Part shown: positions 26,528 through 60,181 of the stretch, piece after piece
How positions within the stretch are numbered: the stretch's first letter is position 1
Layout: each line of letters starts with the position of its first letter
From: a virus
Taxonomy: Duplodnaviria > Caudoviricetes
Length of the DNA: 64,000 nt
Direction: 5' to 3' (one strand)
Virus record (IMG/VR): IMGVR_UViG_3300037361_000044
Coordinates: 126,299 to 190,298 of that record
Notes under the pieces: generated by a model
The model's input: only the letters and a program-made list of their open reading frames with translations
Database searches by the model: none
Told to the model about the DNA's origin: nothing
Position numbers and translations under genes: made by a program

Positions 26528-27011
26528 AAGGGTAGACGTGGCAGAGACCAAGGCTGTCTTCGCGGAGCTTCGTGAGAGAGCAGGAGGCCAGGAAGAACCC
26601 GCGGCGCTGGGTAACGTGCTCAACGCTGTGGTGAAGTTCAATCAGGTGCGTGACTACACCACGTTCCTGGCGGAGTACACGTGCTTGGACGGAAACATCG
26701 TCGTGCACTTCTTCCCGCCGCTGGAGGCCTACGTAGGCGTGGGCGAAGCCCGCAAAGTGGTGGAGGAGTACCTGTTGTTTTGGCAGAAGAAGTTCCCGCT
26801 GGTACTTAGTCCAGTCGCCGAGGACTACTTCAAAGCCACGCGCCCGGTGCTTACTGCCCAGTACATCCCGGAGATGCAGAGTTGGTACCTGAAGGCAGGG
26901 GGTTTCGCCAACAGGCTGGATCCCGACGCCTTCATTTTGAAATTCTTCGAGAGATTGGATGCGGGGCTCGATGCGAGCTACCCCTCCCCTTCCCGTGTTC
27001 CTGGGGCTTAG
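26511..27011 (+). CDS. Hypothetical protein
   Basis: GGGAG RBS, coupled ORF. Confidence 0.7.
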   Translation: MEVNARRVDVAETKAVFAELRERAGGQEEPAALGNVLNAVVKFNQVRDYTTFLAEYTCLDGNIVVHFFPPLEAYVGVGEARKVVEEYLLFWQKKFPLVLSPVAEDYFKATRPVLTAQYIPEMQSWYLKAGGFANRLDPDAFILKFFERLDAGLDASYPSPSRVPGA

Positions 27012-27291
27012 GCGGGGAGTACTTGATGTGCAGGGCGACGTGCCCTCGCTTTTGAGACAGCTCATCCAGCGCCCAGTGCGACCGCCTGGCATACCCCCTC
27101 ATGTAGCTACTGGCTGTTTTCCATAATTCTGAGGGTATCTTGGACGTCAGGCGGAATGTAATCTTGAATCCCGACTCGTCTTGGTCCACGGTAGCCTCCT
27201 CACCCCAATGCAGGTTAGATGCCCTCCGTAGTGACGACCACATGTTTTGAACCAGCGTGTATGGATCCTTGGTTGGTGTTGGAGGGTACAT
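26932..27291 (-). CDS. Hypothetical protein, antisense and head-to-head with terminase
   Basis: Only ORF filling 27011-27295; probable ATG 27291. Confidence 0.5.
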   Translation of the reverse strand: MYPPTPTKDPYTLVQNMWSSLRRASNLHWGEEATVDQDESGFKITFRLTSKIPSELWKTASSYMRGYARRSHWALDELSQKRGHVALHIKYSPPKPQEHGKGRGSSHRAPHPISRRISK

Positions 27292-27294
27292 TGA

Positions 27295-29130
27295 ATGGCT
27301 GCCGCTGAAAGGTTTACTGAGGACTACTCGGAGCACCCGGACGACTCTGGTGCAGAGGGTACCCCACTTTCTGATGAAGAGCTACAACGCCTGGCCGAGC
27401 TCGATAGGTGGGTGCCGGAGGCCGAGGAGTACTTGGACCTCTGCACGGATGACGACCCGTACAAGTTCCTCCGGGACGGTGACGCTCCGGTAATCCTCCC
27501 GTCTAGCTTCACTGAGTACGCCTTCTGGATGCCCACGAGCAACGGCTACGAGCAGTTCTCGTTCGAGGGGCGTCATCATCTGCGGCAGGTCTACGACACC
27601 CCACGGCGTCGTGTATTGCTCATGTGCGGTCGTCAGGTCGAGAAGTCCACACTTCTTGGCAACAGGGCTTTGGCCTTGGGGTGTCTCATCCCCGCCTACA
27701 AGACCCTTTATGTTAGCCCCTCGGCAACGCAAACCAAGACGTTCTCTAACGACCGTGTGAAGGATCCTATCGAGACCAGCCCTGTGCTGCGGGCCTTCAC
27801 GAACCGCATGCTGTCGCAGAACGTTTTCGAGAAGCAGTTCATCAACCGCTCGAAGATCACACTGCGTTACGCCTTCCTCAACGCTGACCGCGCGCGCGGT
27901 ATCCCAGCCAACCAGCTCCTCATCGACGAAATCCAGGACATCCTATCGGACAACATCCCGGTCATCGAGCAGTGCTTGTTCCACTCCCCCGAGGAGCTGA
28001 AGCGGTTCGTCTACTCAGGGACGCCCAAGACCCTGGACAACGTGATCGAGGATTATTGGAGCAACCGTTCCACGCAGAACCAGTGGGTGGTGCCCTGTGA
28101 CTGCACGGGCGGGGAAGCGGGCCGTTACTGGAACATCCTTGGCGAGAAGAACATCGGCAAGAAGCACCTGATCTGCGAGCACTGCGGCAAGCAGATCTTT
28201 CCAATGGGTCCAGCCTCACAGTGGGCCAGCGCCGTGGAGTACGACCCGGTTCATACGCCCTTCGAGGGGTACCGCATCCCCCAGCTCATGGTCCCGTGGC
28301 TGGACTACAACGAGCTGCTCTACAACTACAACAGCTACTCCCGCAACAAGTTCTACAACGAGACGTTGGGTATTTCCTTCGATAGCGGGTTGCGGCCGCT
28401 CACGAAAGCGCAGGTTCGCTCGAATTGCATCGAGACCATTCACATGGCGGATGCGGACAAGTACCAGAAGCTGTCCTTCAGCCAGCCTATCTTTGCTGGA
28501 ATCGACTGGGGCACAGGCGAGAACACGTACACGGTGCTCTCCCTGGGCATGTACATTCGGAACAAGTTTCGGATCTTCTATGTGCACAGGTTCACAGGAG
28601 AGGACATCGAGCCAGATCGGCAGCAGGAGAAGATTCGAGATATTCTACGCACGTTCAATGTGCGCATCATCGGCGCCGACTATGGTGGCGGCTACTATCC
28701 CAACGACTACTTGACCCGCCAGTTTGGCCCAGACCGGCTGATGAAGTACCAGTACGTGGCCAGGCTCACGTCGAAAGTACGCTGGGAGAACAAGTTGCGG
28801 CGTTGGATGGTGCACCGCTCAGAGGTGATGAGTGCCATCTTCAATGCCATCAAGCGTGGCAATGTATTTGAGTTTCCACGTTGGGCTGAGTTCAATGACC
28901 CGTACGGCCAGGACATGCTCAACATCTTCAGCGAATACAACGAGAAGCTGCGCATGATTCAGTACGGGCACACCGCAGGAAAGACGGACGATACATTTCA
29001 CTCCATCCTGTACTGCTTCCTGGCTTCCATGGTCATGCGTCCACGCCCGGACATCATCGCCCCTGGCAAGGAGGCCGAGGGGGTTGGCCCCGTCTGGAGT
29101 TCGTACTCGGGGCCTGTTGACCAGGGTTGA
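27295..29130 (+). CDS. terL: Terminase large subunit (lambda gpA-like)
   Basis: GRQVEKST Walker A variant, LLIDEIQD, YSGTP, CDC/CEHC, FAGIDWG nuclease motif, DDTFHS. Confidence 0.92.
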   Translation: MAAAERFTEDYSEHPDDSGAEGTPLSDEELQRLAELDRWVPEAEEYLDLCTDDDPYKFLRDGDAPVILPSSFTEYAFWMPTSNGYEQFSFEGRHHLRQVYDTPRRRVLLMCGRQVEKSTLLGNRALALGCLIPAYKTLYVSPSATQTKTFSNDRVKDPIETSPVLRAFTNRMLSQNVFEKQFINRSKITLRYAFLNADRARGIPANQLLIDEIQDILSDNIPVIEQCLFHSPEELKRFVYSGTPKTLDNVIEDYWSNRSTQNQWVVPCDCTGGEAGRYWNILGEKNIGKKHLICEHCGKQIFPMGPASQWASAVEYDPVHTPFEGYRIPQLMVPWLDYNELLYNYNSYSRNKFYNETLGISFDSGLRPLTKAQVRSNCIETIHMADADKYQKLSFSQPIFAGIDWGTGENTYTVLSLGMYIRNKFRIFYVHRFTGEDIEPDRQQEKIRDILRTFNVRIIGADYGGGYYPNDYLTRQFGPDRLMKYQYVARLTSKVRWENKLRRWMVHRSEVMSAIFNAIKRGNVFEFPRWAEFNDPYGQDMLNIFSEYNEKLRMIQYGHTAGKTDDTFHSILYCFLASMVMRPRPDIIAPGKEAEGVGPVWSSYSGPVDQG

Positions 29131-29159: not shown

Positions 29160-29840
29160 ATGCCTTCAAGGAAGTGTTGCCCAACTTGTAACCGTCCATA
29201 CCCAGTGCTGCCAAAGCGTGCCTGTCTTGTCTGTAAGGAGCCGTTCAGCCCATCAGGTGTCACCAACGTCTGCTGCTCTAGGGAGTGTCAGCGCAAACAC
29301 AAAGGAAGCTTTGCCGAGCGGTTTTGGGCACGCGTCAACAAGCATGGGTTAGTTGCAGACGGAATGAAAACGAGCTGCTGGCTATGGACCGGCAGGCTAG
29401 AGAAAAATGGATACGCTAGGGTGAAGCGTGCAGATTCGAGGCAGCAAGTGTCTGTGCATCGTGCCGCTTGGGAACTACTGCACGGTGAGGTACCAGCTGG
29501 CATGTTCGTGTTGCATGAGTGTGACGTGCGCCATTGCGTTCGACATCTGTCCCTGGGTACGCACCAAGACAACATGAATGACATGTTCCGTAAAGGCAGG
29601 GCACGCAAAGCACAAGGGGCTAGGCACGGCCATGCAAAGCTTACGCCTCAGCAGGTTATAGACATTGTCCGACGTCGGCTGTCTGGTGATACCCCGCGCG
29701 AACTAGCAACTGCTTATGGGGTCTGCGAAGCGCAGATAGGCAGGATTTGCACAGGCAAGCGTTGGAAGGAGGCGCTGGCAGGTCTGGGGACTTACGAGTA
29801 CATGCAGCGAGGGAAGAAGGTACAGGTCTCTTTTGGCTAA
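29160..29840 (+). CDS. HNH homing endonuclease, possibly degenerate
   Basis: ERFWARV, CWLWTG, VHRAAW, VLHECD..CVRHLSLGTHQDN, C-terminal AKLT..V..I HTH. Confidence 0.85.
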   Translation: MPSRKCCPTCNRPYPVLPKRACLVCKEPFSPSGVTNVCCSRECQRKHKGSFAERFWARVNKHGLVADGMKTSCWLWTGRLEKNGYARVKRADSRQQVSVHRAAWELLHGEVPAGMFVLHECDVRHCVRHLSLGTHQDNMNDMFRKGRARKAQGARHGHAKLTPQQVIDIVRRRLSGDTPRELATAYGVCEAQIGRICTGKRWKEALAGLGTYEYMQRGKKVQVSFG

Positions 29841-30942: not shown

Positions 30943-32277
30943 ATGAAAGGGCCAGCCATGAATGACTCACCCATGCAGACCATGCTGCAGCAACGCGACG
31001 CCCGCCCCATCCCCGGCGAGCACCTGGAAGTACTAGGCAAGCGCGCTGCCACAAGCTGGGTCACCGGTAAGTGCGCGTCGCTGCATGAGGCAGTTGTGGC
31101 GTCGGTCCACTCCGAGCGGCTTTCCCCCGAGCAGGTACGCCGAGTGGTTGAGTTTGCAAACCAGGATGCATACCAGCAGGAATTCCGCAAAGAAGGGCAG
31201 CACAAGGTGGTTCATTTCGATTGCGGACCGGCGGATCCGGCGCAGGTTCTCCAAGACTTGAATGACGGCGGAGGTGGGTCGGTGTACGATCAGGGCAACC
31301 TGGACTACAGGATGTCCCCATCCATGGCAAAATCCGCGTCACTCAGCCGTACCCCGACCACGTCCATGGACAAGACCGCTTCCGCCGCATCAGAAGAGCC
31401 AGCGGTGCCGGGCTTGCCCAAACTAACCAAGCTCCCCAGTTTGCCCAAGCTGGCATCGGAGTCCCCTTACGAGGACCAGCTCTGGGGCCTGTTTGGCGCC
31501 GAGTCTCCTTCGGTGCTCCCCATGGCGGAGCCCATGGGCCCGCTGATGGAGGTTCGTCACAAGCTGGCTGGCGTTCACAACGAGCTCGTACACGAAGTCA
31601 ACAAGCTCGAGCTCGACTACGTCGAGGTCAGCAAGGACCTGTACCACTCGGTGAAGCAGGCCTCGTTGGAAGGACACCCGCTGGGGGACATCGTCGCGGC
31701 CTGGGCTACGGTCAACACCGACCCGGTGTACGTGAAGGTGGCCTTCCAGCTACTGTCGCCTCAGCTCCGCAGAGACGGCGTGTTCGACAGTCTTGAGGCC
31801 ATCGGAGAGTCCCTGCAGAAGCAGGCATCGGTGGGCACCCCCAACCCGGAGCATCCCCTGGTGCAAGCTTACGGGGACTTCGTTGCCACACTGAACAAGC
31901 TGGCAACTGCTCGCGCGCTGATGGGTGAGTACGCAGAGGGCTTGGAGTCCGCCGACTTGCTGCTGAAACAGGCAGCTGGAGGGTTGGTTGGTGCCGTGGG
32001 AAAAGGGTTGTCCGCGGCCAGCAAGGGGATTGATACCGCGGCAAAGCCGGTAGCTCACATGCTGGTTGGTGGAAAAGACGCCAAGAAGTTGGCACCACTT
32101 TTGGCCAAAGGTACCAAGCTCACAGGCGGTGCTGCCGCGTTGCTGGCCGGTAACGCTGCTGTCCAAAACGTGACGGACCGTCCCGCTGTGCGTAGCGCAG
32201 TGCAGGCGGCGCAGAAGGTGGTACCTGGCACGGCCGCGTACAACGAGCGCCGCTACCGCAACCAGATGGGAATGTAA
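30943..32277 (+). CDS. Putative prohead core/internal head protein, K-x-A-rich with amphipathic C-terminus
   Basis: At least 10 K-x-A motifs; C-terminal KQA|AGGLVGAVGKGLSAASKG. Confidence 0.6.
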   Translation: MKGPAMNDSPMQTMLQQRDARPIPGEHLEVLGKRAATSWVTGKCASLHEAVVASVHSERLSPEQVRRVVEFANQDAYQQEFRKEGQHKVVHFDCGPADPAQVLQDLNDGGGGSVYDQGNLDYRMSPSMAKSASLSRTPTTSMDKTASAASEEPAVPGLPKLTKLPSLPKLASESPYEDQLWGLFGAESPSVLPMAEPMGPLMEVRHKLAGVHNELVHEVNKLELDYVEVSKDLYHSVKQASLEGHPLGDIVAAWATVNTDPVYVKVAFQLLSPQLRRDGVFDSLEAIGESLQKQASVGTPNPEHPLVQAYGDFVATLNKLATARALMGEYAEGLESADLLLKQAAGGLVGAVGKGLSAASKGIDTAAKPVAHMLVGGKDAKKLAPLLAKGTKLTGGAAALLAGNAAVQNVTDRPAVRSAVQAAQKVVPGTAAYNERRYRNQMGM

Positions 32278-32870: not shown

Positions 32871-34586
32871 ATGATCAAGGTCAGCCTCTTTCAAGGTAGC
32901 GAGGAGTACGGTCCAGCAGCGGTACCGCTCTTTGGCGCGGCAGACAGCTACTTCGAAAAGGTAGCTTCTGCCTCGTTGCTACCGGAGGTGTCGACGTACA
33001 TAGCCCAGTTGCAGCCACGTAACGACTCGCAGTACGTCTTGGTCAACGCCATGGGCGCTGGCGAGTACTACGGGTCGAACGTCAACGGCGACCGCTTCTC
33101 CGAAGAAGCCCTGATCCATTCGCCAAACGATTGGAAGGGCATCCCCGTCTACGACAAGGTGAAGTCTGCGGACTGGGCCTACGGGTTTCCGACCTTCTAT
33201 GGGGCGCATGTATTCCCTCATCATCGCAACAAGGACGCCAAGCGTGCCCTTGGTTTCGTTGAACTAGCCGCTTGGAACCCGCACATGAAGCGGGTCGAGC
33301 TTGTGACAAGGCTGGACAACGCGCTGTGTTTGAAGTTCGGCGGTGAGGGCATCTGGGACAAGCTCAAGGCTGGCATGTTCCCTGACGTCAGCATGGGAAC
33401 GAAGGTACCCTTCGACACCTGCTCGATCACGCTGGACAAGGAGCTCTACTACAAGGCTTGGGCGACGTACGACCCCAAGAAGCACAAGAGCCCAGGCGAG
33501 GCCATCCTCGAGTACCACAAGAAGCTCAAGGCCAAGGACGGCGTCGGCATTCGTGGTGTCAGCATCACACGCGCTGATTACTCCAAGTACGCGCGCACCC
33601 GTATGAACTTCATCCTCCCAGATGGCCGCAAGGTCTGGGTGGACAACGACTTCCCTAAGTTCTTCGACCTCAGCTATGTCTTCATGGGCGCTGACCGCAT
33701 AGCCAAGGCCATGCTGAAGATCGCAGACGCGGGGCGGGTCTACTACTTCATGGGCTCCGCCGAGCTGGCTGAGAAGCTGGGGATGTCGGACGATGACGAC
33801 GTGCAGGAGAAGACCGCAGCGAGTAAGCAGGCCACTCCCAAGTCTGCCGAGATGAACAAGGAAGTCATCCCCAACCAGCTCGCGGGGAAAGCCGTCCCCC
33901 TGTTGACGGCAAACGAGCCAGACCTGCCGCAGGATGTGCTCGGCGCCATGGGGGCTGCCGGGCTTGACTCGGCCCTGACTACTTCGGCAGGCCTAGGCAT
34001 GGTCCTTCGTCCACGGGAGTTCCAGCGCATTACCCTCATCTGCCTGGGAAAGCGCGACGTTGCGGACCAACTGGATGCCTTAGGTCAGGTTTTCCCCAAG
34101 GTGGAGGAGCGGGATCCGCTGCCCATGGAGGGGAGTAGCTTCAGCCCCGGGCTGGCCAGCATCCTGGCACCGCTGCTGGGGGACCGCTCCGCGTTCGGAC
34201 CCGTCATCGAGCGGCGGGTTGTGGTTGTAGCCGGCACAACCCCCAAGGATACGAAGAAGGACACTTCCCATTCCTCTGAGCTTCTCCGTAAGATTGGAGC
34301 GGCCTACAACGGCTACCGAGACAGCCTCATGCAGTTTGTACCAGAAGCACAGGACTTGATCGAAGCGTCCACATCGCCTAGCGATGCTACGCTACGCAAG
34401 CTTGCTGGAGTACCTGCTGAGGAACTTTTTACACCACTGTCCGTCCAGTACCTAACTCATGCCTTCCTGGATGAGCTTGGAACTCCGGATCAAGAGGTGG
34501 TAAAACATGCACACGCCAGCGTGCAGAGGGTACTCCCCTTGGCGACCACGCAGCATCAACAACGAGTAGGAGTATTGCAATCATGA
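32871..34586 (+). CDS. Prohead maturation protease (HK97/assemblin-like serine protease)
   Basis: SNVNGDRF, TFYGAHVFPHHRN, VSMGTKV..DTCS, FFDLSYVFMGAD; upstream of scaffold and capsid genes. Confidence 0.78.
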   Translation: MIKVSLFQGSEEYGPAAVPLFGAADSYFEKVASASLLPEVSTYIAQLQPRNDSQYVLVNAMGAGEYYGSNVNGDRFSEEALIHSPNDWKGIPVYDKVKSADWAYGFPTFYGAHVFPHHRNKDAKRALGFVELAAWNPHMKRVELVTRLDNALCLKFGGEGIWDKLKAGMFPDVSMGTKVPFDTCSITLDKELYYKAWATYDPKKHKSPGEAILEYHKKLKAKDGVGIRGVSITRADYSKYARTRMNFILPDGRKVWVDNDFPKFFDLSYVFMGADRIAKAMLKIADAGRVYYFMGSAELAEKLGMSDDDDVQEKTAASKQATPKSAEMNKEVIPNQLAGKAVPLLTANEPDLPQDVLGAMGAAGLDSALTTSAGLGMVLRPREFQRITLICLGKRDVADQLDALGQVFPKVEERDPLPMEGSSFSPGLASILAPLLGDRSAFGPVIERRVVVVAGTTPKDTKKDTSHSSELLRKIGAAYNGYRDSLMQFVPEAQDLIEASTSPSDATLRKLAGVPAEELFTPLSVQYLTHAFLDELGTPDQEVVKHAHASVQRVLPLATTQHQQRVGVLQS

Positions 34587-35382: not shown

Positions 35383-36915
35383 ATGGAGCTGTTCAGCCGT
35401 ATGCAAAAAGTCGCAGATGCCACATCGATACCTTTCGCCGACTCGGCGGCAGATACAGCTGCGGCAGCTCCACTCCCTGGCTTAGCGGTGGGTAACAAGC
35501 CCGCACCCGGTCAAACGGGACCTAAGGGCTTGGCTCCCCGCACCAACTACTCCCGCGTCAACACCGGGTCTCCGCTACAGGCAGACGCCGGGGCATCCTC
35601 CCAAAAGGGCATGCCACCCGACAACCAAAACTTTCTCCCTCCGAAAATTGCACACAGAGAGGTTCCTATGTCTGGAACGATGGCTCATCGACTCACGATT
35701 CACGAGATGGTCAAGGCTGCCGCAGTCGGCACCCTTGAGCAGGCTGCAGTGACGGTCGAAGCGGAGCGGCAGCTAGCCAATCTTGGCGAACCTACCGCAA
35801 CCTCCGTGAAGACTGCTTCTGCGGCTCCCTCCTTGGTCCCGAACTCCATACCTACCGATTACGTCGAGAAACTTGCAGGTGCCTGCGAGTATATGCTCGA
35901 CGAGCTTCGGGAGAAGGCGGCAGCGGATTCTGCCAACGGCCCCGGTAAGGGTCCGAACGCGCTTCAGGTCCTCGAGGCCACTTCCGAGAACAACGAGTTC
36001 AAGGACGGACATCAAGGGCAAGCAACTCCGGCGCACGTGGTCCCCAAGACCCCGGGTACGCACAAGCCCGCAGAGACCCCCGCGGGTCCCGCTACGGCAC
36101 TTGACACCAACGCAGCGGAAGCTGTCGGTGGTAAGCAGAAGGTCAGCTCTGTTACCGCTTCTGAGCTGCGTAAGGCGGCGGCCGACATCAAAGGTCTTGC
36201 TGGTAAGGCCATGAACGTAGTCAAGGCGCACCCCGCGGCGGCAGCCGGCGCAGCAGGCCTTGCTGGCGGCGCAGCGCTTGGTCGTATGTCGAAGAAAGCG
36301 GAGTTCCCCGCTGAGCTCTTCGCCAAGAAGGACGACAAGAAAGAGGACAAGAAGGACCCCAAGGACAAGGGCAAAGAGGAGCCTAAGGACAAGGGAGACG
36401 ACAAGGGCGAGAAGAAAGAAGCTTCTGCAGTCGATCCCCGCCTGGTAGACTACTTCTTGTCCATGACCAAGGCTGCAGAAGACGCCATCAACCCCGCGCA
36501 GATCTCCGCAGGAGCCGCAGTTCCTCCAGAGACTAGCGCTTCGGGTGAGTCCGGCGGCGCCCCTGCTGGTGGTCTTCCCCAAGGCCCTACCGGTCTTGTT
36601 GGCTCGAATGAGTCGGCAATCAACTACACCAAGGGGCAGGCGAAGGCCCAGGTGAAGCCGCAGCTGAGTGCGGTCCTAACCGAGCCGGCGCTCTCTGCCG
36701 CTCACGACACCACGCTTGGCAAGGCGTTCGACAACACTGGCGCTGCCGGTGTGAAGATCTCCTCGATGCGTTCTGCTGCAGCACGTGCTGTAGTGGAGAA
36801 GTTGGCAGAAGCTGAATGTGCCAAGACCGACCCCAAGGCGAAGAAGAAGGAGTCGGCGGGCATGGGCAACTTCCAAGCACCACCTGTCAGCGGCGCGGCC
36901 ACTGGCGCAATGTAA
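35383..36915 (+). CDS. Putative scaffold/internal head protein, K-x-A-rich, low complexity
   Basis: About 10 K-x-A; possible second start ATG 35668 with GAGG. Confidence 0.6.
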   Translation: MELFSRMQKVADATSIPFADSAADTAAAAPLPGLAVGNKPAPGQTGPKGLAPRTNYSRVNTGSPLQADAGASSQKGMPPDNQNFLPPKIAHREVPMSGTMAHRLTIHEMVKAAAVGTLEQAAVTVEAERQLANLGEPTATSVKTASAAPSLVPNSIPTDYVEKLAGACEYMLDELREKAAADSANGPGKGPNALQVLEATSENNEFKDGHQGQATPAHVVPKTPGTHKPAETPAGPATALDTNAAEAVGGKQKVSSVTASELRKAAADIKGLAGKAMNVVKAHPAAAAGAAGLAGGAALGRMSKKAEFPAELFAKKDDKKEDKKDPKDKGKEEPKDKGDDKGEKKEASAVDPRLVDYFLSMTKAAEDAINPAQISAGAAVPPETSASGESGGAPAGGLPQGPTGLVGSNESAINYTKGQAKAQVKPQLSAVLTEPALSAAHDTTLGKAFDNTGAAGVKISSMRSAAARAVVEKLAEAECAKTDPKAKKKESAGMGNFQAPPVSGAATGAM

Positions 36916-37883: not shown

Positions 37884-39005
37884 ATGGCTGTTCCGGCGAG
37901 TGTATTGAACGACCTCTTTGCTTCGAAGCTCAATAGCAACGATGGCAAGGAAAAGATCGCCGAGTATGGTGGTAGCTACATCCGTGACCGCCTCCGCGAG
38001 GTGAGCTTTGCTCGCAAAGTCATCCCGCCGGAGCAGGTCACGCGTGCTGACTGCCAGCGCTCGGTAAACCACGACACCCTGGTCAAGATCATCGACATCG
38101 AGCCTAAGAGCCGAGCAATGTCGATTACCTTCCGGGGGCAACCCGAGGCTCGCTTCATTCGAGGCGACCGTGCGGAGATTGCATTCTTCACCATCAGCTC
38201 TGAGATGTTCCAAAAGACGGAGCAAGAGCTGCTGGCCTACGAGATGCCCATCACCAAGATCATCGAAGAGAATTCGGTGAAGGACATCCAGGAGATCGAG
38301 GACCGTGAGTTCACGATCCACATCGAGGCTGCTGTGCAGGCTCTCCAGACCGAGGCGAACGGTGGAACCCCCGCTGCTCTCCACTACGGTACGGTTGGTC
38401 AAGGCGCTGTCGAGTTCTCCGTCCGTAAGGGCGAGCTCGCACGCAACGCCACTGCCAACTCGGCAGAGGTACTCCCAGTCAGCCGCGTCGACATCGTCAA
38501 CCTGTTCAAGATGGTGGACGGGAACCGACTCCGTGCAGAGCGTCTGCTCATGACCGAGGTCGATTGGGACGATATCCTCTCCTGGACGGTGGAAGACTTC
38601 GGTGACCGTATTCAGTCGGAAACGACTGTCGACGGTTACAAGTACAACACGCTCTTGGGCAAGGCGTACATCCGTACCATCAAGACGGACATCCTTCGTC
38701 CCGGTAACATCTACGCGTTCACCAAGCCGGAGTTCTTCGGGAAGTTCTACGTACTGAACAACACGAAGTTCTACATCGACAAGATCGCCAACACGATCAC
38801 CTTCCAGGCTTGGGAAGACATCGGGATGTCGGTCATCAACATTGCGTCGGTTCGAAAGCTCGAGCTCTACTCGGGTGACGCCAACCCGACGACGGATGCG
38901 GATGACCTCCTGGACAACTTCATCCCACGGTCCGAGGAAGCCTTGGGCGCAGTCAATAACAGGGTTGACGCAGGGTTGAAATTTCCTCAGGTATCGCAAT
39001 ACTGA
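37884..39005 (+). CDS. mcp: Major capsid protein (HK97 fold)
   Basis: AAGGAGA RBS, strong codon bias, IRDRLREVSFARKVIPP, KDIQEIEDREF, EFFGKFYVL, WEDIGMSVIN; canonical position. Confidence 0.85.
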   Translation: MAVPASVLNDLFASKLNSNDGKEKIAEYGGSYIRDRLREVSFARKVIPPEQVTRADCQRSVNHDTLVKIIDIEPKSRAMSITFRGQPEARFIRGDRAEIAFFTISSEMFQKTEQELLAYEMPITKIIEENSVKDIQEIEDREFTIHIEAAVQALQTEANGGTPAALHYGTVGQGAVEFSVRKGELARNATANSAEVLPVSRVDIVNLFKMVDGNRLRAERLLMTEVDWDDILSWTVEDFGDRIQSETTVDGYKYNTLLGKAYIRTIKTDILRPGNIYAFTKPEFFGKFYVLNNTKFYIDKIANTITFQAWEDIGMSVINIASVRKLELYSGDANPTTDADDLLDNFIPRSEEALGAVNNRVDAGLKFPQVSQY

Positions 39006-39068: not shown

Positions 39069-39662
39069 ATGTCCAGAGTTTGTAACTTCTGCCCGCGTAC
39101 AGACCTCACCGACGATGACTTCTACTCGACCAGGAACATCTGTAAGAAGTGCGCCATCGCGAAGAACAATGCCCGAGCAAAGAAGCTACGTGAGTCGGGG
39201 ATTTGCGTGGACTGCCAAAAGCCGGCGGAGCCAGGTAGCTCACGCTGTACTGCCTGTAAGGGTCTGCACCGCACCCGTTATCACATGAATAGCGCTAAGA
39301 ACCATACTGTGGCCAAAGAACGTAGGCAGCGTCTCAAACTGGCAGCCATGCACGCCTACGGCGGCCCTACCTGTGACTGTTGCGGCGAAAGCCACATGGA
39401 GTTCCTGACCATCGACCACGTCGATGGGAACGGTGCTGCCCATAGACGGCAACTGCAAACGGAAGCAGGCTGGACGTACAGGAATGCCAACATGTGTGGC
39501 AGCCACTTCTACCGGTGGCTTCAGCGTCAGGGGTATCCAGCGGGCTTTCGGGTTCTTTGCTTCAATTGTAACTTCTCCTTGGGCCATTTCGGGTACTGTC
39601 CACATGCCGGTTTGGTTCAACGCCCAACCCAGGCTAAACTAGCGGCGGAAGCTGCAGAGTGA
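39069..39662 (+). CDS. HNH/Endo VII-like homing endonuclease with Zn fingers
   Basis: CDCCGE..EFLTIDHVDGNG...VLCFNCN. Confidence 0.8.
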   Translation: MSRVCNFCPRTDLTDDDFYSTRNICKKCAIAKNNARAKKLRESGICVDCQKPAEPGSSRCTACKGLHRTRYHMNSAKNHTVAKERRQRLKLAAMHAYGGPTCDCCGESHMEFLTIDHVDGNGAAHRRQLQTEAGWTYRNANMCGSHFYRWLQRQGYPAGFRVLCFNCNFSLGHFGYCPHAGLVQRPTQAKLAAEAAE

Positions 39663-41911: not shown

Positions 41912-43384
41912 ATGGATGCGTTTCAACAAGGTCTTAGTCGTGGGATTCCCGCGGAGAAGGCTGCGTCCTTCTTCGTGGGGCTGAAGAGCTGGCAGCCGTT
42001 GTCTCATGAGGACGACGTGCTCATGGCTGAGTGCATCAAGCAGGCGGCCCTCGAGCAGTCTCCTGCTCTTCGGAAGCAAGCGGCATTGGAGCGGCTGGCG
42101 CTCATCAAGCGTGCAGCCGAGGAGTCCACACACGGTGGTGGCGAGATGGCCACGCCTACCCCTGTTGAGGAGGGGACGCCGGAGACTTCGCCCGAGCAGT
42201 CCTTCCTTGCCAACGAGCAGGCAGGCATGGCCGCGGAGGAGCAGAACTCCTCGGCGTACTTCCAGCAGCTGCTCAGTGGCCTGCGTGAGGAGCTCGCGCA
42301 AAAGTCTGAGGAAGCGCAGCTAGCGCAACAACAGGCAGATCAGCTGATGCAGCAACAGCAGGCGCATGACCAAGAGGTTGCCGGCGCCCAGCAAGAAGCA
42401 CAGCTGGCCCAGCAGGCAGCCATGGAGCAGGTGCAGTCGGCTAACGCTTCGGCGACGACAGCCATGCAGCAGGCCGTGGACGCGGAGAACCGCGCGCTAC
42501 AAGCCAAGGGCAACGAGGCTGCCGCGAAGATTCAGCAGCAACAGGTTCGTAGCCAACTCTTTGGCCTAGCTTCCCAAGGGCTGCCCGGTACCGAGCCTGA
42601 GCTCGGCGGTGAAGGTAACGCCGCGGGTGGCATGGAAGGTGGCCAACCTCCGGCGGCGCCAGGCGGTGAGACGAATGGGGCCCCAGGTGAGACGGCAGCC
42701 GCCCCTGGTGAGACTCCACAGGCCGGCGGTGAGACACCCAGTGCTGGGATGAATGAAGCTGGGCAGCCGGCAAACGCCGAAGGCATGCCAGGTCAGGCCG
42801 CATCTACGGAGCAAGCCGGGGCGGCAGCTGGTCCTACCTCTTTGCAACCGGCGGATGACACGTCTGGCGGAGCTGGCTCTGGCTCTGGGGTCGGTCCTCA
42901 GTCCAACTCGACTGGGACGCCTTCGTCTCCATTGCAGGATCCCACTGCGAAGCGGCAAGGGCAGGTCTCCATCAAGGTCGGCAGCTACGAACAAGCCATC
43001 GCGTTCTTGGAGGAACGCCGCGGCCGCCCTTTACCTAAGGCAGCGGGGGTGAACCCCGCGCTTGTCGGTGGCCTCGCCGGTGGTGCCTTGGGCTTAGGCC
43101 TGGGCGCGCTCGAGGCCACGGGGCATGGTCCGGACTTGAACAAGTTGCGTGGAAAGATAGATGAACAGCACGCGGACATGCAGCAGCCTGGGTTGAAGGG
43201 CTTCGGTAAGGCCTTCGACTTGGCTTGGAATCGAACCCTGCTCACACAGGGCGAGGCAATACAGGCGCACCCAGTCTTGGGGACGCTTGCGAGTGGCGCC
43301 GCGGGCGCCGCCATGGGAGCAGGGCTTGGGCAGGAACTGCCAGGGGCGCTGCGTGAGGCCAGGAATCTGCACAAGAAGCCCTGA
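41912..43384 (+). CDS. Putative internal/ejection protein: Q/A coiled coil, P/G linker, glycine-zipper C-terminus
   Basis: K-x-A cluster; PKAA|GVNPALVGGLAGGALGLGLG. Confidence 0.6.
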   Translation: MDAFQQGLSRGIPAEKAASFFVGLKSWQPLSHEDDVLMAECIKQAALEQSPALRKQAALERLALIKRAAEESTHGGGEMATPTPVEEGTPETSPEQSFLANEQAGMAAEEQNSSAYFQQLLSGLREELAQKSEEAQLAQQQADQLMQQQQAHDQEVAGAQQEAQLAQQAAMEQVQSANASATTAMQQAVDAENRALQAKGNEAAAKIQQQQVRSQLFGLASQGLPGTEPELGGEGNAAGGMEGGQPPAAPGGETNGAPGETAAAPGETPQAGGETPSAGMNEAGQPANAEGMPGQAASTEQAGAAAGPTSLQPADDTSGGAGSGSGVGPQSNSTGTPSSPLQDPTAKRQGQVSIKVGSYEQAIAFLEERRGRPLPKAAGVNPALVGGLAGGALGLGLGALEATGHGPDLNKLRGKIDEQHADMQQPGLKGFGKAFDLAWNRTLLTQGEAIQAHPVLGTLASGAAGAAMGAGLGQELPGALREARNLHKKP

Positions 43385-43400
43385 GGCTGAGGAGACCGTC

Positions 43401-45071
43401 ATGCTCAACGAGTTTTTGCTAGCTGCATACAAGGACAACCAAACCAAGCTCGCCAACCGGCAGCTCGTGGACAAGCTGAAGGCCTTCGACCTGGACGACC
43501 TGGTCGCTCTGGCCAACGGTGACCCCACTGCGAAGCTGGCCTCTTACTGCGATGGACCGTCTGACGGCCCTCAATCCTGGCTCGACAAGTACAAGGGGTC
43601 ACCTTTGTTCGAAAAGGCCGTGGAGTTAGAGAAGTCCCTCCTCGAGGCAGACGCCGCGGCGGATGCCAAGCGCACGGAAGAGCGCGAGTCGGACAGGACC
43701 ATGGATGACCAGCGCGACGCCTTGCGTATGCAGAAGCGCATGCTCGATCTGGACCTTGCCCTTGAGCAAGAGGGTGGTGCCGCGGCAGCGGCGTCCCCGG
43801 AGCCCGCAGTACCAGCAACTCCGGAAGCCCCAGTCGAACAAGCTCCCTCTCAGACAGCCGTCGAGGTGAAGCAGGCTGGTTACATCAGCAACTTGCTGGG
43901 TAATGAGGCGAATAGGGCACAGATGACAGCGGCGGTGCACACCGCGTTGGGTAGCGGTGCACAAAATGTACAGCGCGCAGTAGAGCGTGCAGACAAGCTG
44001 TCTGGCAAGACATTGAAAGCGCGCCTGGGCACAGCTGGCGTACTTGGAGCAGCCGCAGGACTCGGCTCTGCCGCACACAAGAAGAAAGAGGCGGCCGTTG
44101 GTGCCTTCATCTCAGAAGCCCGCAGCACGCGCGACACTGTCCATCCGGAAGCCAGACAGGGAAATGGCCAGCTCGGTGACTATTCTGTGGACCCTTCGGA
44201 GACTGTGACCGAGGGTCTCCAGGTAAGTAAGACTGCGGCTGTTTCAAAGGTTGTAGCGGCGGACGCTGCCGGAAGACTCTTTGCGAAGTCTGCCAGCGTG
44301 GACTTGTCTGGCGTGAAGCAGTTAGCCAAGGATCGCATCAGCGGCATGCAGACGCTAATCGAGCCGCAGGTACGTGGTGCTTCTGCCATCGCCAATCGAG
44401 TGCTTGGCGAGAAGACTAGTGCCACCGATCCTCAGGCTTTTTACGAAGAGGTCATCAAGCGCTACCCGCACCTGGCCGGCAAGAAGAAGGAAGCGGCTAC
44501 GCAGGGTACCGCTGGGTTTGCTAACCCAGATGAGTTGCGTCTAGCTATCGCCGTGTTGAACCGTCAGGCAGCTCAGGCAGAGCAGCATCCAGTGCGTAGT
44601 CGTATTCATCAGGGGTTGGCTGGCGCCGGTGTGGGCGCATTGGGTGGCGCTGCCGTAGGTTCAATGGGCGCTGGACTTGTTGACCCGTCTGGCTACTCTC
44701 CAGCGCTTGCTGGATTAGGGGCTGGAGTGGGTGCGCTAGGCGGCGGTATTTACGGTGCAACCAGAAAACCCGGCGCAGGGACTCGTAGGGACGCAAACAA
44801 CCTGCAGCAACTTTTGCAGCACTACGAGGCCACTAAGCAGGCGGGAATTGCTGGCAGCTTGCTGCAGGGCGTAAAGACGTTGGGCTCCAATGCCAAGAAC
44901 CTGGCTACTACCGCACATGCGGCGGGGGGTATGCCCCAGGTAGCTAAGTCCTTTGGCAACGTCGCCAAGAATTTTGCCCAAGCCAACCCCTTGGCTGCCA
45001 CCGGTATCGCTGCTGGCGCTGCTGGTCTTGGCGGCATGGCCCTCGGCCGCGCAACGGCGCCCAACCGCTAA
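43401..45071 (+). CDS. Putative processed internal head polyprotein with glycine-zipper/amphipathic modules
   Basis: ATG 43401 after GAGGAG; modules separated by KQA, KEA, KTA, KSA. Confidence 0.62.
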   Translation: MLNEFLLAAYKDNQTKLANRQLVDKLKAFDLDDLVALANGDPTAKLASYCDGPSDGPQSWLDKYKGSPLFEKAVELEKSLLEADAAADAKRTEERESDRTMDDQRDALRMQKRMLDLDLALEQEGGAAAAASPEPAVPATPEAPVEQAPSQTAVEVKQAGYISNLLGNEANRAQMTAAVHTALGSGAQNVQRAVERADKLSGKTLKARLGTAGVLGAAAGLGSAAHKKKEAAVGAFISEARSTRDTVHPEARQGNGQLGDYSVDPSETVTEGLQVSKTAAVSKVVAADAAGRLFAKSASVDLSGVKQLAKDRISGMQTLIEPQVRGASAIANRVLGEKTSATDPQAFYEEVIKRYPHLAGKKKEAATQGTAGFANPDELRLAIAVLNRQAAQAEQHPVRSRIHQGLAGAGVGALGGAAVGSMGAGLVDPSGYSPALAGLGAGVGALGGGIYGATRKPGAGTRRDANNLQQLLQHYEATKQAGIAGSLLQGVKTLGSNAKNLATTAHAAGGMPQVAKSFGNVAKNFAQANPLAATGIAAGAAGLGGMALGRATAPNR

Positions 45072-45973
45072 TGCCCGTCGCCATCGAACTCTGCAAGCTC
45101 AAGGTCACCTCTTTGGATGTTGATTTCCATGAGGTGACTTGGGCTGTGGCTCCGACATCACGTGACGTGTTGGATTACACGTTCCAGGTGATTCGCTCGG
45201 AGGCAGAGGAGGGCCCCTGGACTGAGCTCTCCCCACCGATGGAGGACAGGTACGCCTTCATCGACGATGTGCTGCAGATATTGAATCGATGGCGCACGTA
45301 CTTTTACAAGGTGCGCGTGGTGGAGAAGATCTCAGGTGATGCTAGGGACTTTGGCCCCTTCGCCAAGGAGCCTGAGGCCGACCTGGTGGCTTTGGAGTTG
45401 CGCCGCCACATGCGTATCCTGTTCAAGGAGGTTGCCGGTAGGAGGTGCATTGTGCTCCCCATCCGCACCTTCGGGCAGCGTTGCCCTGATTGCTGGAACT
45501 TTCAGCTGAAGAAGCGAACCAAGAGTGGATGCCTCACCTGCTACGACACTGGCTTCGTGCGCGGGTACATGCACCCAATCGAGACGTGGACACAGATAGA
45601 CCCGAGCTCCAAGTCGCAGCAGAACGCCAATACTGGTATCACCCAGCAGGACAACACAACTTCGAGGCTGGGGTACTACCCTTCGATCAAGCCCTTTGAC
45701 TTGATCATCGAGGCCGAGAACGTTCGCTGGCGTGTGACCGGGCAGACCCAAACGGAGCACTCCCGTGCGGCGGTACATCAGGAAGTACAACTGCACCGTG
45801 TACCTGAGAAGGACATCGAGTACGCAATCCCTGTGCACTTCGACCAGGCTTTGAAGAACCTGTGGGTGACCCCCGAGCGTAACTACAGCAACCCGCACAA
45901 CCTATCGAACTTCGAGATCACTTCGATGCCGGACATCTTTGCGATGTATCCTCAACCACCGAGGCAGCCATGA
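45071..45973 (+). CDS. Putative neck/head-closure protein with FN3-like N-terminus and Zn finger
   Basis: YTFQVIRS..GPW..YFYKVRVV; RCPDC...CLTCYDTGFVRGY. Confidence 0.55.
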   Translation: MPVAIELCKLKVTSLDVDFHEVTWAVAPTSRDVLDYTFQVIRSEAEEGPWTELSPPMEDRYAFIDDVLQILNRWRTYFYKVRVVEKISGDARDFGPFAKEPEADLVALELRRHMRILFKEVAGRRCIVLPIRTFGQRCPDCWNFQLKKRTKSGCLTCYDTGFVRGYMHPIETWTQIDPSSKSQQNANTGITQQDNTTSRLGYYPSIKPFDLIIEAENVRWRVTGQTQTEHSRAAVHQEVQLHRVPEKDIEYAIPVHFDQALKNLWVTPERNYSNPHNLSNFEITSMPDIFAMYPQPPRQP

Positions 45974-46428
45974 CCTACGACGTAACCCTGAGGGAGATGC
46001 CACTGGCAAGGGCCTTGTGGAAGTTGGCGGAACTGCCAGAGCCACCGCCAGACTCCGGGGAGGTGCCACATGAAGAGCTCGGTTCGCTACGGCAACCCGT
46101 GACAAAGAACCACATCAAGAACCCCATCCTGCACGGACTTGGTGCTTTGGGTGGCGGCGCGTTGGCTTTTGGTGGCGGCATTGGCGCCGGCTACCTGGGT
46201 CAGCTGGGCGTCGAGAAGTTGATGGGAAAGCAGATACCTGCTGGCGTGCTCAGCAAGGCTGCTCCCGTCATGGGCGGACTAGCCGCAGTGGCGTACCATA
46301 CCTACAAGGCCAAAGAACAGGAGCAGTTACGCCGTGCACTCGAAGCCTACCAGAACCAATCCAGGGGATCAGTCCCCGCAGGAAAGCATCCGGTCCACAC
46401 CCCTGACCCAACTGCGGGTGCTGTATAA
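45970..46428 (+). CDS. Small glycine-zipper membrane-type virion protein
   Basis: ALWKLA| then GLGALGGGALAFGGGIGAG. Confidence 0.6.
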   Translation: MTYDVTLREMPLARALWKLAELPEPPPDSGEVPHEELGSLRQPVTKNHIKNPILHGLGALGGGALAFGGGIGAGYLGQLGVEKLMGKQIPAGVLSKAAPVMGGLAAVAYHTYKAKEQEQLRRALEAYQNQSRGSVPAGKHPVHTPDPTAGAV

Positions 46429-51359: not shown

Positions 51360-51371
51360 GGAGTTTTGCTG

Positions 51372-52199
51372 ATGGACCTCGACAAGTTCAACGTAGCGGT
51401 GCACCGCGTCCAGGCCGGGCAGTTCCTTCGAGAGAAGACTGCCTCGGTCGTGGGCGTGAGTGCCATCGACGCCGCGCTACAGGCGCGCGCTGGGCAGGCG
51501 GAAGACCCCGACCTGCTCAAGATCGCCACGCAGCTCTGCCCCGAGGATGCCCTTGGGTTTTACATGAAGCTGGGTGGTCAGCTAAAGGTTGCGGAGCCTC
51601 CGCCCCCTCCAGGTGTTTCGTTGAAGGAGTGGGACAAGAAGCTCCAAGAGGGGCCTGAGAAGACAGCAGGGGATGTGGTGAAGTTCACCCGACCCCTAGC
51701 TTCGAAGGTCAAGGACTTGGCGAAGAAGGTCCTTCCAGCGGCTAACGGCACTGTGCGCAAGGTGGACTTCACCAACCCAGAGGGTGTGCGTGGGGCGCTG
51801 AGTAAGGCACGTGACGCGACGGCAAGGGCCGCACATAACGCCAAGGCCATGAAGAATGGCAAGCCGTCGTCTTTGTCCGACACCTTGAGCTATGCCAAAG
51901 GTGCTTTGCCCTTTGCCGGTGCCGCTGCGCTAGCTGGTGGCGTCTCAGGGCACATCCGAGGTAAGGTCACCTCTGCGTCTGACCGGCGCAAGGAGGAGGC
52001 TAAAGCTGGACCTATCGGCCGCGCCATCATCCGACATCCAGCCCTGGCTGGAGCCGCCTCCGCTGGAGCCGGCACGATGCTCGGTCTGCACGCCAAGACT
52101 TTTCCTGGTGCGTTGGCGGGCGCTGTAGCACCTGGTCTAACTGCTCTTGGTGCCGACCGAGTGTTGAAGCATTTTGAGGATAAGAAGAAGGGGCGCTAA
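51372..52199 (+). CDS. Putative internal head protein with K-x-A sites and hydrophobic glycine-rich C-terminus
   Basis: EKTAS, KIAT, KVAE, EKTAG; ATG 51372 after GGAG. Confidence 0.6.
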   Translation: MDLDKFNVAVHRVQAGQFLREKTASVVGVSAIDAALQARAGQAEDPDLLKIATQLCPEDALGFYMKLGGQLKVAEPPPPPGVSLKEWDKKLQEGPEKTAGDVVKFTRPLASKVKDLAKKVLPAANGTVRKVDFTNPEGVRGALSKARDATARAAHNAKAMKNGKPSSLSDTLSYAKGALPFAGAAALAGGVSGHIRGKVTSASDRRKEEAKAGPIGRAIIRHPALAGAASAGAGTMLGLHAKTFPGALAGAVAPGLTALGADRVLKHFEDKKKGR

Positions 52200-59344: not shown

Positions 59345-60181
59345 ATGAGCAGTTACACCAAGTTCACATTAGCCACGTTCAAAGCGCGGCTTACGGGAGG
59401 TTCCTACGCGAACCTCACCGGGGCCAATCGGGCCATCGGCAAGACGCAGGAGTTGTCCGAAGAGGACAAGGGCAAGGCGCGCACCATGGCAGCCAAGCAC
59501 TTTGGCGTTGCCGCCCCTGCAAAGAAGGCGGCCCCCAAGGCCGCGGCTAAGCCAGCGGTCAAGCCCGCGAAGAAGGTGGCCAAAAAGGCTACGAAGAAGG
59601 CAACCCCCAAGGCCAAGCCTGCTGCGCCCCCCGCGAAGAAGGCAGCCAAAAAGGCTGTGAAGAAGAGCGCAAAGAAGGTGGCGAAGAAGGCCACCAAGTC
59701 TGCCCCCGCGGCAGAACCTGCGCCTGGTGCGTCCCCAAAAGCACCAGCGATGGCGGCGCCGAAAGCTCCGGCCTCCATCGCAGTGACGACGGAGCTTCCT
59801 GAAGTACGCAAGGCACGAGTGATTGAGCAGATGGGCTCTGTCGTCACTACTATCGGACAGGCCCTTACGTCCATGAGGGATGCCAAGCAGCTGTTCCCAA
59901 AAGCTGAGCTGGAGGAGGGCGTCACCACCGCGGTCTTCTCAATGTCTCGAGCAGTGCAGCGACTCGATCAGGAGGTCATCTCCCCCGGTTTGCTGCCCGC
60001 TTCGGCACCTGCTGCAAAGCAGACTGCCAAGGCTGGTAAAAGGCTCAAGACGGACACAGCTGCACCCGAGGTGGATGTAGCAGCCGGCAGTGATGCGGCC
60101 CCCTCGGCCGACATAGATGGGCTGCAGGATGGTAGTAAGCCTGTTCGTCGCCCAGCACGGGTTGCTTCGCAACCCACCTGA
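59345..60181 (+). CDS. Histone H1-like, Lys/Ala/Pro-rich DNA-binding protein
   Basis: PAKKAAPKAAAKPAVKPAKKVAKKATKK repeats between two helical domains. Confidence 0.72.
   Translation: MSSYTKFTLATFKARLTGGSYANLTGANRAIGKTQELSEEDKGKARTMAAKHFGVAAPAKKAAPKAAAKPAVKPAKKVAKKATKKATPKAKPAAPPAKKAAKKAVKKSAKKVAKKATKSAPAAEPAPGASPKAPAMAAPKAPASIAVTTELPEVRKARVIEQMGSVVTTIGQALTSMRDAKQLFPKAELEEGVTTAVFSMSRAVQRLDQEVISPGLLPASAPAAKQTAKAGKRLKTDTAAPEVDVAAGSDAAPSADIDGLQDGSKPVRRPARVASQPT

Follow-up and report, generated by a model that had tools for sequence, protein, structure and literature searches.

The question raised by this locus is whether a phage protein carrying several lysine-any residue-alanine (K-x-A) triplets is a precursor that is cut at those triplets and stored in the head of the virion. 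The window, i.e., the whole stretch of DNA that was analyzed, comprises 64,000 nucleotides of the virus record IMGVR_UViG_3300037361_000044 (positions 126,299 to 190,298 of that record). The target is the open reading frame (ORF) at 43401..45071 on the plus strand, which encodes 556 amino acids (aa) from an ATG at 43401 to a TAA at 45069-45071. An earlier note on this DNA had described the target as polyprotein-like cargo in which K-x-A sites directly precede amphipathic and glycine-zipper peptides. The ORF is real, and all of the strings quoted in that note were found again, in the target and in ORFs 54035/53993, 32279, 30943, 35383, 41912, 6809, 45970, and 51366. Sequence comparison marks K-x-A as a real motif under selection in this phage lineage, and the target is tentatively placed among the head proteins that would be processed at it.

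The window is the final 64 kb of a complete phage contig of 190,298 bp (CheckV completeness, 100). The phage encodes a fused beta-beta' RNA polymerase (2133 aa; window 14514-20915), a terminase, and an HK97-type capsid protein, for which the only database relatives are those of Salmonella phage Arash and three Vibrio phages (27-29% identity). Arash is a myovirus; in its purified virions, RNA polymerase subunits and a sigma factor are accompanied by a cell-wall hydrolase and about 100 further proteins (PMC10585845). The Arash gene order was matched in the window: ORF 32871 corresponds to gp222, the capsid gene to gp226, 40907 to gp233, 45071 to gp234, 47316 to gp236, and 52234 to gp237. The target gene lies in a virion gene block, downstream of the capsid gene; the genes flanking this position encode counterparts of two Arash virion proteins, gp233 and gp234. 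Together with the two preceding ORFs, it fills the slot between the gp233-like and gp234-like genes, which is empty in Arash. A Shine-Dalgarno-like GAGGAG (43389..43394, plus strand) is located 6 nt before the target ATG, and the target stop codon overlaps the start of the next (neck/tail, gp234-like) gene as TAATG. For the syntenic comparison, six related loci were fetched and 20 ortholog groups were aligned.

The motif was first assessed beyond the target. When the 400 pairs of the form X.Y (two residues separated by one) were ranked, K.A was first in the head block of the studied phage (74 observed versus 28.7 expected; z 8.5), and the second-ranked pair was M.K, i.e., Met at P5 when the Ala of K-x-A is taken as P1. 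The same pair ranked first of 400 in Arash gp218-225 (44 versus 19.8 expected) and among the head-block genes of Vibrio phage D69 (50 versus 20.8 expected), where M.K was again second. It was at expectation in the RNA polymerase, the terminase, the sheath, the tube, and about 130 replication and early genes. In individual proteins the excess reached a z of 5-6 (ORFs 4578-6023, 22826-24868, and 30943-32277), and the glycine-zipper proteins named in the earlier note showed no K.A excess as a group. Head K.A sites also differed from K.A elsewhere in their surroundings: P1' was S, A, G, or E in 51/73 head sites versus 44/125 elsewhere (p 4e-6), and P5 was L, M, F, V, or I in 37/73 versus 33/125 (p 7e-4), with Val favored at P4 and L or M at P5.

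The aligned ortholog groups pointed in the same direction. Among 200 triplets in which both flanks are conserved and the middle residue is free, K.A was the commonest (12; next, 5), and two of the three triplets of this type in the target family were K.A. In addition, many proteins of the studied phage open with a leader of 10-33 residues that closes with hydrophobic-(E/Q)-K-x-A, including the candidate protease described below, two scaffold-like proteins, the capsid protein, several orphans, a 605-aa lysin-domain protein, and the sigma factor. Such leaders are present on seven consecutive head-module proteins of Arash (gp220-226) and on seven in D69. In the major capsid protein (37884..39005, plus strand), the N-terminal K-I-A at aa 24-26 aligns to the K-E-A of the Arash and Vibrio D69 capsid proteins, the overall identity to the Arash protein being 29%.

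The 605-aa protein, with a lysin/minor-head-protein domain (genome 21272-23089; locus L008:9773-11590), has a leader ending in K-V-A, as does the phage sigma factor (genome ~26950-27720). The Arash lysin and sigma factor are present in virions (PMC10585845). Because the two leaders end in K-V-A and the Arash counterparts, gp8 and gp10, are virion proteins, both proteins are predicted to be protease-trimmed and packaged.

Short P3-x-P1 motifs of this kind are known from several head-maturation systems. The ejection and inner-body proteins of phiKZ and SPN3US (SPN3US gp53/gp54, phiKZ gp93-97; protease gp245/gp175) come from RNA-polymerase-packaging myophages, as the studied phage is proposed to be. 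In SPN3US, many head proteins have propeptides of 111-254 aa with several copies of a three-residue (P3-x-P1) motif, and the protease gp245 cuts after A-x-E, prefers Val at P4 and Ser at P1', and degrades long propeptides at several internal motif copies (PMC10052503). Matured proteins of phiKZ-like phages are ejected with the DNA (PMC10052503; bioRxiv 10.1101/2024.03.24.586471). The multicopy motif, Val at P4, and Ser at P1' are shared with the system described here. However, the motif is A-x-E (S/A/G-x-E) there and K-x-A here, the target has no sequence or Pfam relation to those proteins (PF12699 was not matched), glycine zippers are no described feature of them, and the candidate protease is not a recognizable S77 member.

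The T4 internal proteins IPI-III and Alt carry an N-terminal capsid-targeting sequence that is cut by gp21 at (L/I)-x-E; a conserved leader of about 10 residues is followed by hypervariable cargo, and the proteins are soluble and without hydrophobic zippers. The short leaders ending at the motif on many proteins of the studied phage resemble this arrangement, as do the conserved ends and hypervariable middle of the target, although the target has a folded pro-domain of 128 aa, a linker, and further internal sites. Herpesvirus assemblin, which shares the fold of tailed-phage prohead proteases, cuts at (V/L/I)-x-A followed by S. K-x-A resembles these sites in having Ala at P1, followed by a small P1' residue such as Ser, and in a P3 that determines specificity, but the P3 residue in the studied phage is Lys. 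By analogy with T4 (L/I)xE, phiKZ/SPN3US AxE, and herpesvirus (V/L)xA-S sites, K-x-A is assumed to be cut after Ala. Taken as a maturation-protease and head-targeting motif, K-x-A has indirect support from its lineage-wide confinement to head-module proteins, its conserved K and A around a free x, its SPN3US-like site preferences, and its presence in N-terminal leaders. We infer that it is the recognition site of the phage head-maturation protease, with the N-domain of ORF 32871-34586 as the candidate enzyme. Such a K-x-A signal would be previously undescribed, and the type of cargo would likewise be new.

The candidate head-maturation protease (32871..34586, plus strand; 571 aa) was proposed from its position, the annotated function of a distant homologue, and weak leads from language models. 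Homologues of its N-domain are Arash gp222, an ORF of Vibrio D69, and gp19 of phage G (tblastn 4e-8), and the N-domain also matches gp97 of mycobacteriophage Myrna. A multi-omics study annotates phage G gp19 as a head maturation protease (PMC12484599). More than 900 metagenomic relatives were found. H117, H118, D172, S174, and H216 are among the invariant residues, and the K-x-A triplets at 30-32 and 314-316 are also invariant. The latter triplet lies in a disordered interdomain linker, and the helical C-domain was confidently predicted. The language-model leads to S77/S78 in Atlas were weak (score only ~0.90), PDB sequence searches with the target, the candidate protease, and its 23-sequence profile returned nothing, and homology to assemblin, T4 gp21, or HK97 gp4 was not demonstrable in the searches made.

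Some relatives of the candidate protease (P0052, P0070, P0088, P0089, P0128, and P0148) are about 950 aa long and contain intein or LAGLIDADG domains (PF14528, PF13403, and PF14890); an intein within a head-maturation gene is unusual. In Bacillus phage G, where gp19, gp20, and gp21 are located at L012:7881-10769, gp19 and gp21 are rich in K.A (8 versus 2.5 and 7 versus 2.8, respectively). The portal protein of phage G begins ...M-A-K-Q-A, and its capsid protein gp27 is without K.A. The K.A richness in phage G hints that K-x-A specificity may be older than the Arash-like clade.

The target itself has 27 metagenomic homologues, many of them from contigs of 185-200 kb, which share its start Met (13/13 aligned); the 28 family members are 348-738 aa long. 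The conserved ends enclose a variable middle, and all of the following features are on the plus strand. The N-terminal pro-domain (aa 1-128; 43401..43784) is 59% identical to its homologues on average, with 98% coverage, and has predicted helices at 2-27, 31-38, and 70-128. AlphaFold2, run with 27 sequences, modeled it with confidence (predicted local distance difference test [pLDDT], 85-95) as helical, including a 59-residue helix; the remainder of the target was below 60. A variable, Pro/Ala/acidic linker, predicted to be disordered, follows (aa 129-159; 43785..43877) and ends in a conserved (V)EVK-x-A. Behind it lies a lineage-specific cassette of 72 aa (aa 160-231; 43878..44093; net charge, +6) with K-x-A at both ends. 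In the closest homologues this cassette is missing and EVK-x-A is joined directly to the next block, and a longer cassette at the same position in another homologue is likewise bounded by K-x-A at both ends. The next, semiconserved block (aa 232-298; 44094..44294) is preceded by K-x-A in 5/5 of the homologues that have it. A glycine-zipper pair (aa 402-427 and 429-454; 44604..44762) is hypervariable in sequence and copy number among homologues and of marginal hydrophobicity. Finally, the C-terminal module (aa 482-556; 44844..45068; net charge, +6) is conserved at 53% identity and 90% coverage, with helices predicted at 487-507, 512-528, and 530-540 and, after an N-P helix cap, a glycine zipper at its terminus (aa 524-549). 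The cassette, middle, and zipper-pair regions showed identities of only 19-28% at coverages of 31-62%.

The target was without match in Pfam (E ≤ 0.01), PHROGs, PDB sequence, Foldseek BFVD, and Atlas searches, and again when Pfam and PHROGs were run on the target and 30 neighboring proteins. It belongs to no known internal-head-protein family among those tested (Pfam PF12699 and the PHROG head families) and is not matched by the glycine-zipper profiles of Pfam (Gly-zipper_Omp, Gly-zipper_YMGG, and Rick_17kDa_Anti; none at E ≤ 0.01). A Foldseek search of BFVD with the AlphaFold2 model of the target gave no match below E 0.009. Within the phage, the comparison of the cassette with the C-terminal module was not significant (E 0.24), and profile hidden Markov models (HMMs) of the N-domain and C-terminal module found no paralogues in the six-frame proteome (top match, ORF 32279; E 0.05). 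Since the target profile HMMs found no paralogues, the recurring G-I-G-G-x-L peptides are compositional look-alikes rather than homologous modules.

The eight K-x-A sites of the target differ in conservation. At aa 16-18 (43446..43454) and 45-47 (43533..43541), K and A are invariant in 13/13 aligned sequences, with L, E, T, V, Q, or K between them; K-x-A with a variable middle residue is present at both positions in the majority of the 28 members of the family, and the second site is in a low-confidence loop. The site at 157-159 (43869..43877) is the conserved (V)EVK-x-A that closes the linker, that at 229-231 (44085..44093) forms the 3' end of the cassette, that at 277-279 (44229..44237) is conserved in 6/7, and that at 296-298 (44286..44294) lies within the semiconserved block. 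The site at 363-365 (44487..44495) is common only to the closest relatives, and the site at 479-481 (44835..44843) is in a low-confidence loop before the C-terminal module, a border at which most homologues have K-x-A. In all, four to six sites are positionally conserved with a free middle residue, and sites 157, 229, 277, and 479 are kept in position or function at module borders. Across the family, conservation was 0.54 for K and 0.54 for A of K-x-A versus 0.23 for x and 0.31/0.33 for other K and A. Sites 45, 157, 229, and 479 fall in linkers of low pLDDT. If the target were cut at K-x-A, the predicted fragments would be 19-116 aa long.

On the best-supported reading, to which we would give not quite an even chance, the target would be a precursor, processed at K-x-A, of an ejection-type protein stored inside the head of an Arash-like, RNA-polymerase-packaging myophage. 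The pro-domain would carry the target into the prohead and would then be removed and degraded. The basic glycine-zipper modules delimited by K-x-A might remain with the DNA and exit through the tail at infection, and once ejected they might insert into or perturb the inner membrane and so help the DNA and RNA polymerase to enter; both of these later steps are speculative. The chain from motif to cleavage, ejection, and membrane activity becomes weaker with each link.

Four uncharged Gly/Ala segments of 18-26 aa are present in the target, at aa 209-226 (44025..44078, plus strand; within the cassette), 402-427, 429-454, and 524-549, and they are bounded by R, R, D, and K-N-F, respectively. Segments of this kind occur in 28/28 family members (1-6 each), none in the N-domain and one almost always C-terminal. 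Across the proteome, Gly/Ala zipper segments were found in 13 of ~242 ORFs, all belonging to the virion module. The earlier note had placed K-x-A directly before the zippers, which did not hold: the zippers of the target begin 37-49 residues downstream of the nearest K-x-A, and in seven syntenic genomes 27/59 Gly/Ala segments were Lys-bounded, with a K-x-A start in 2/27 versus 27% expected from alanine content. The remainder of the target behind aa 159 has a net charge of +17, and the hydrophobicity of the segments is marginal for a membrane helix. The acidic upstream pro-region is present in the target (net charge -12 over aa 1-159, pro-domain plus linker); the layout of acidic pro-region and basic remainder was seen in only some of the eight glycine-zipper proteins. 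The proposed likeness to antimicrobial-peptide precursors accordingly extends to the charge layout of acidic propiece and basic products; it does not extend to the fragment lengths, the ordinary hydrophobic moments, the lack of a secretion signal, or the virion-assembly context.

Arash provides the nearest virion data for such proteins. Arash gp4 has a 40-residue zipper and 14 K-x-A triplets and gave 1952 spectra, the second-highest spectral count in virions, and gp224, also a virion protein, has long glycine-zipper segments and an N-terminal K-S-A leader. Because these two virion proteins carry zippers, glycine-zipper proteins are taken as genuine virion components in the lineage. Like the target, gp4 and gp224 combine long glycine zippers with K-x-A in the same wider lineage, and they have been detected in virions. 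In BLAST searches they had no detectable homology to the studied genome, target included, and their genes are at different genomic positions.

A number of results weigh against the target being a processed, ejected, and membrane-active precursor. By count, it is not enriched in K-x-A (8 observed versus 6.3 expected from shuffles; p ~0.31). When the extended context was scored with position weights trained on head sites, 6/8 of its sites, the best conserved included, scored like background, among them border sites having G or N at P1'; head sites seldom have G there. Head-like scores were obtained for sites 277 and 296 only. Site 16-18 is part of a helix that was predicted with confidence. No relative of the target was found by tblastn against 50,697 phage records or by a pattern scan of IMG/VR, and its profile found no homologue in the whole Arash genome. 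For the protease, Pfam S77/S78 gave no match when searched against the whole genome, and the AlphaFold2 model of the candidate reached a pLDDT of 55 and had no Foldseek match in the PDB. The RNA polymerase has neither an N-terminal K-x-A leader nor a K.A excess (11 versus 13.2), so the leader is not a universal packaging tag; if the polymerase is packaged as in Arash, it would need another loading route, e.g., via a partner. With regard to membrane activity, the 18 residues that follow each target K-x-A had an unremarkable helical hydrophobic moment (3rd-83rd percentile of windows from the same protein), contrary to the amphipathic peptides described in the earlier note. The best 19-residue hydropathy was 1.45 (Kyte-Doolittle), which is marginal for a membrane helix, and the summed Hessa-scale values of the target segments were +3.4 to +4.4 kcal/mol, which are rough values. 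Finally, the K-x-A-rich proteins of Arash have a very high reported peptide coverage, which would be unexpected after complete cleavage.

Several of these points suit a protein that is not cleaved and has a structural or assembly role in the neck/tail region, which we consider unlikely but the likeliest of the alternatives. Most K-x-A triplets would then be a by-product of Lys/Ala-rich helices, with a few conserved copies kept for folding or packing. The chance-level count, the six sites without head-site context, and the helical site 16-18 all agree with this, as does the position of the gene among neck/tail genes, to one of which it is translationally coupled. Such a protein would not be expected to keep K and A with a free x amid diverging sequence, to place the sites at module borders and linkers with a cassette bounded by K-x-A at both ends, or to share the same signature with neighboring proteins.

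It is rather improbable that the target is a membrane-anchored morphogenesis factor, in which the zippers would tether it, together with the prohead core or initiator under assembly, to the producing cell's inner membrane and cleavage at K-x-A would free the prohead, with no fragments delivered. T4 proheads start on the membrane, and hydrophobic segments with conserved K-x-A borders fit this role. However, the rough Hessa-scale sums are positive and the N-terminus of the target has no signal or anchor. The hypervariable middle suits host interaction better than a conserved assembly role, and the glycine-zipper proteins of Arash are abundant in mature virions.

Packaging of an intact target is a further alternative, and we rate it as improbable. 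In this case, K-x-A would be a docking motif (capsid interior, scaffold, or portal) for cargo loading or a lysine-modification site. The conservation of the motif and its confinement to head proteins suit binding as well as cutting, and the high peptide coverage of the K-x-A-rich Arash proteins is in line with it. Up to 13 copies per protein, in disordered linkers and N-terminal leaders, are typical of protease sites, though, the P4 and P1' preferences match those of a characterized prohead protease, and the candidate protease has invariant copies in its own interdomain linker. Arash peptide coverage was itself rejected as a test of cleavage: the search was apparently a default tryptic one, and a coverage of 100% came from two peptides, which makes it not interpretable. 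A tape-measure-like or tail-lumen protein whose hydrophobic segments form a membrane channel from the tail side is very improbable: the helical, Gly-rich hydrophobic segments, the conserved ends and variable middle, and a gene near the sheath and tube genes would suit it, but the idea was rejected because the target varies from 348 to 738 aa beside a length-invariant tube (252-254 aa) and a sheath varying by ~10% (1042-1153 aa), and the gene is upstream of the sheath rather than after the tube and chaperones and encodes a pro-domain with head-type K-x-A sites.

If the target is indeed a processed head-internal precursor, a wider scenario can be drawn, which we regard as a long shot. About eight basic glycine-zipper modules released by the protease, with the target as the richest source, would be stored in the heads of Arash-like phages, ejected with the DNA, and would remodel the inner membrane of the host, either by forming a conduit of sufficient width for the DNA and the 2133-aa polymerase or by seeding an early lipid-bounded compartment. 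phiKZ-like phages form an EPI (early phage infection) vesicle at an early stage (bioRxiv 10.1101/2024.03.24.586471). The ejection proteins of podoviruses (T7 gp14/15/16, P22 gp7/16/20, and N4 gp51/52) are head-stored, poorly structured "conformational gymnasts" that exit via the tail and form a trans-envelope conduit, in N4 together with the virion RNA polymerase (PMC8954989, PMC13434306). In contrast to the target, these are not protease-processed polyproteins; no homology to them was found (PHROGs, none), and the studied phage is contractile-tailed.

Neighboring genes carry the same signature. The upstream neighbor (41912..43384, plus strand; 490 aa) is of the same kind as the target, with conserved N-terminal K-x-A sites and two glycine zippers; its site 66 is K-x-A in 6/6 (x = R, Q, T, I, K, and L), and the first zipper is preceded by K-x-A in orthologues. 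A small glycine-zipper protein (45970..46428, plus strand; 152 aa) has a conserved leader K-L/T-A followed by ELPEPPPD (5/5). In ORF 53993, K-x-A is followed by GIGG in 5/5, and ORF 51366 has three conserved K-x-A sites (5/5, 5/5, and 4/5). The otherwise unrelated proteins at 45970-46428 and 51366-52199 have a common leader junction, K-(L/V/T)-A then E-(L)-P-E/P-P-P-P, and this stretch after K-x-A may be a second-layer signal. An Asn/His-Pro helix cap (N-P-x-L/V-x-G...) commonly stands before the zippers, a mini-module that recurs across nonhomologous proteins (window 41912-43384, 43401-45071, 45970-46428, 51366-52199, and 35383-36915).

Two further features of the window were observed. In related phages, the structural block is collinear except that HNH homing-endonuclease genes come and go at differing slots between its genes (window 29160-29840 and 39069-39662; relatives, L005:7287-7967, L007:7446-7979, L004:16973-17599, and L007:17808-18875). 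At 59345-60181 (plus strand), a 278-aa protein has a long low-complexity tract of Lys, Ala, and Pro that is reminiscent of the tails of histone H1. Composition accounts for its 16 K.A (z 2.9), which are unlike head sites, and the protein may condense DNA.

If K-x-A is a maturation site, phage head proteases would gain a new specificity class, found in a large clade that is mostly uncultured but has cultured members in Salmonella (Arash) and Vibrio. In that case, packaged or ejected cargo would be predictable from sequence alone in genomes with about 80% of genes unannotated; among the cargo so predicted are a set of glycine-zipper proteins, a sigma factor, and a cell-wall hydrolase. Head-stored hydrophobic modules would then be a testable candidate for how contractile-tailed phages bring DNA and a very large RNA polymerase across the inner membrane, and the same module family would be a candidate organizer of the first moments of infection.

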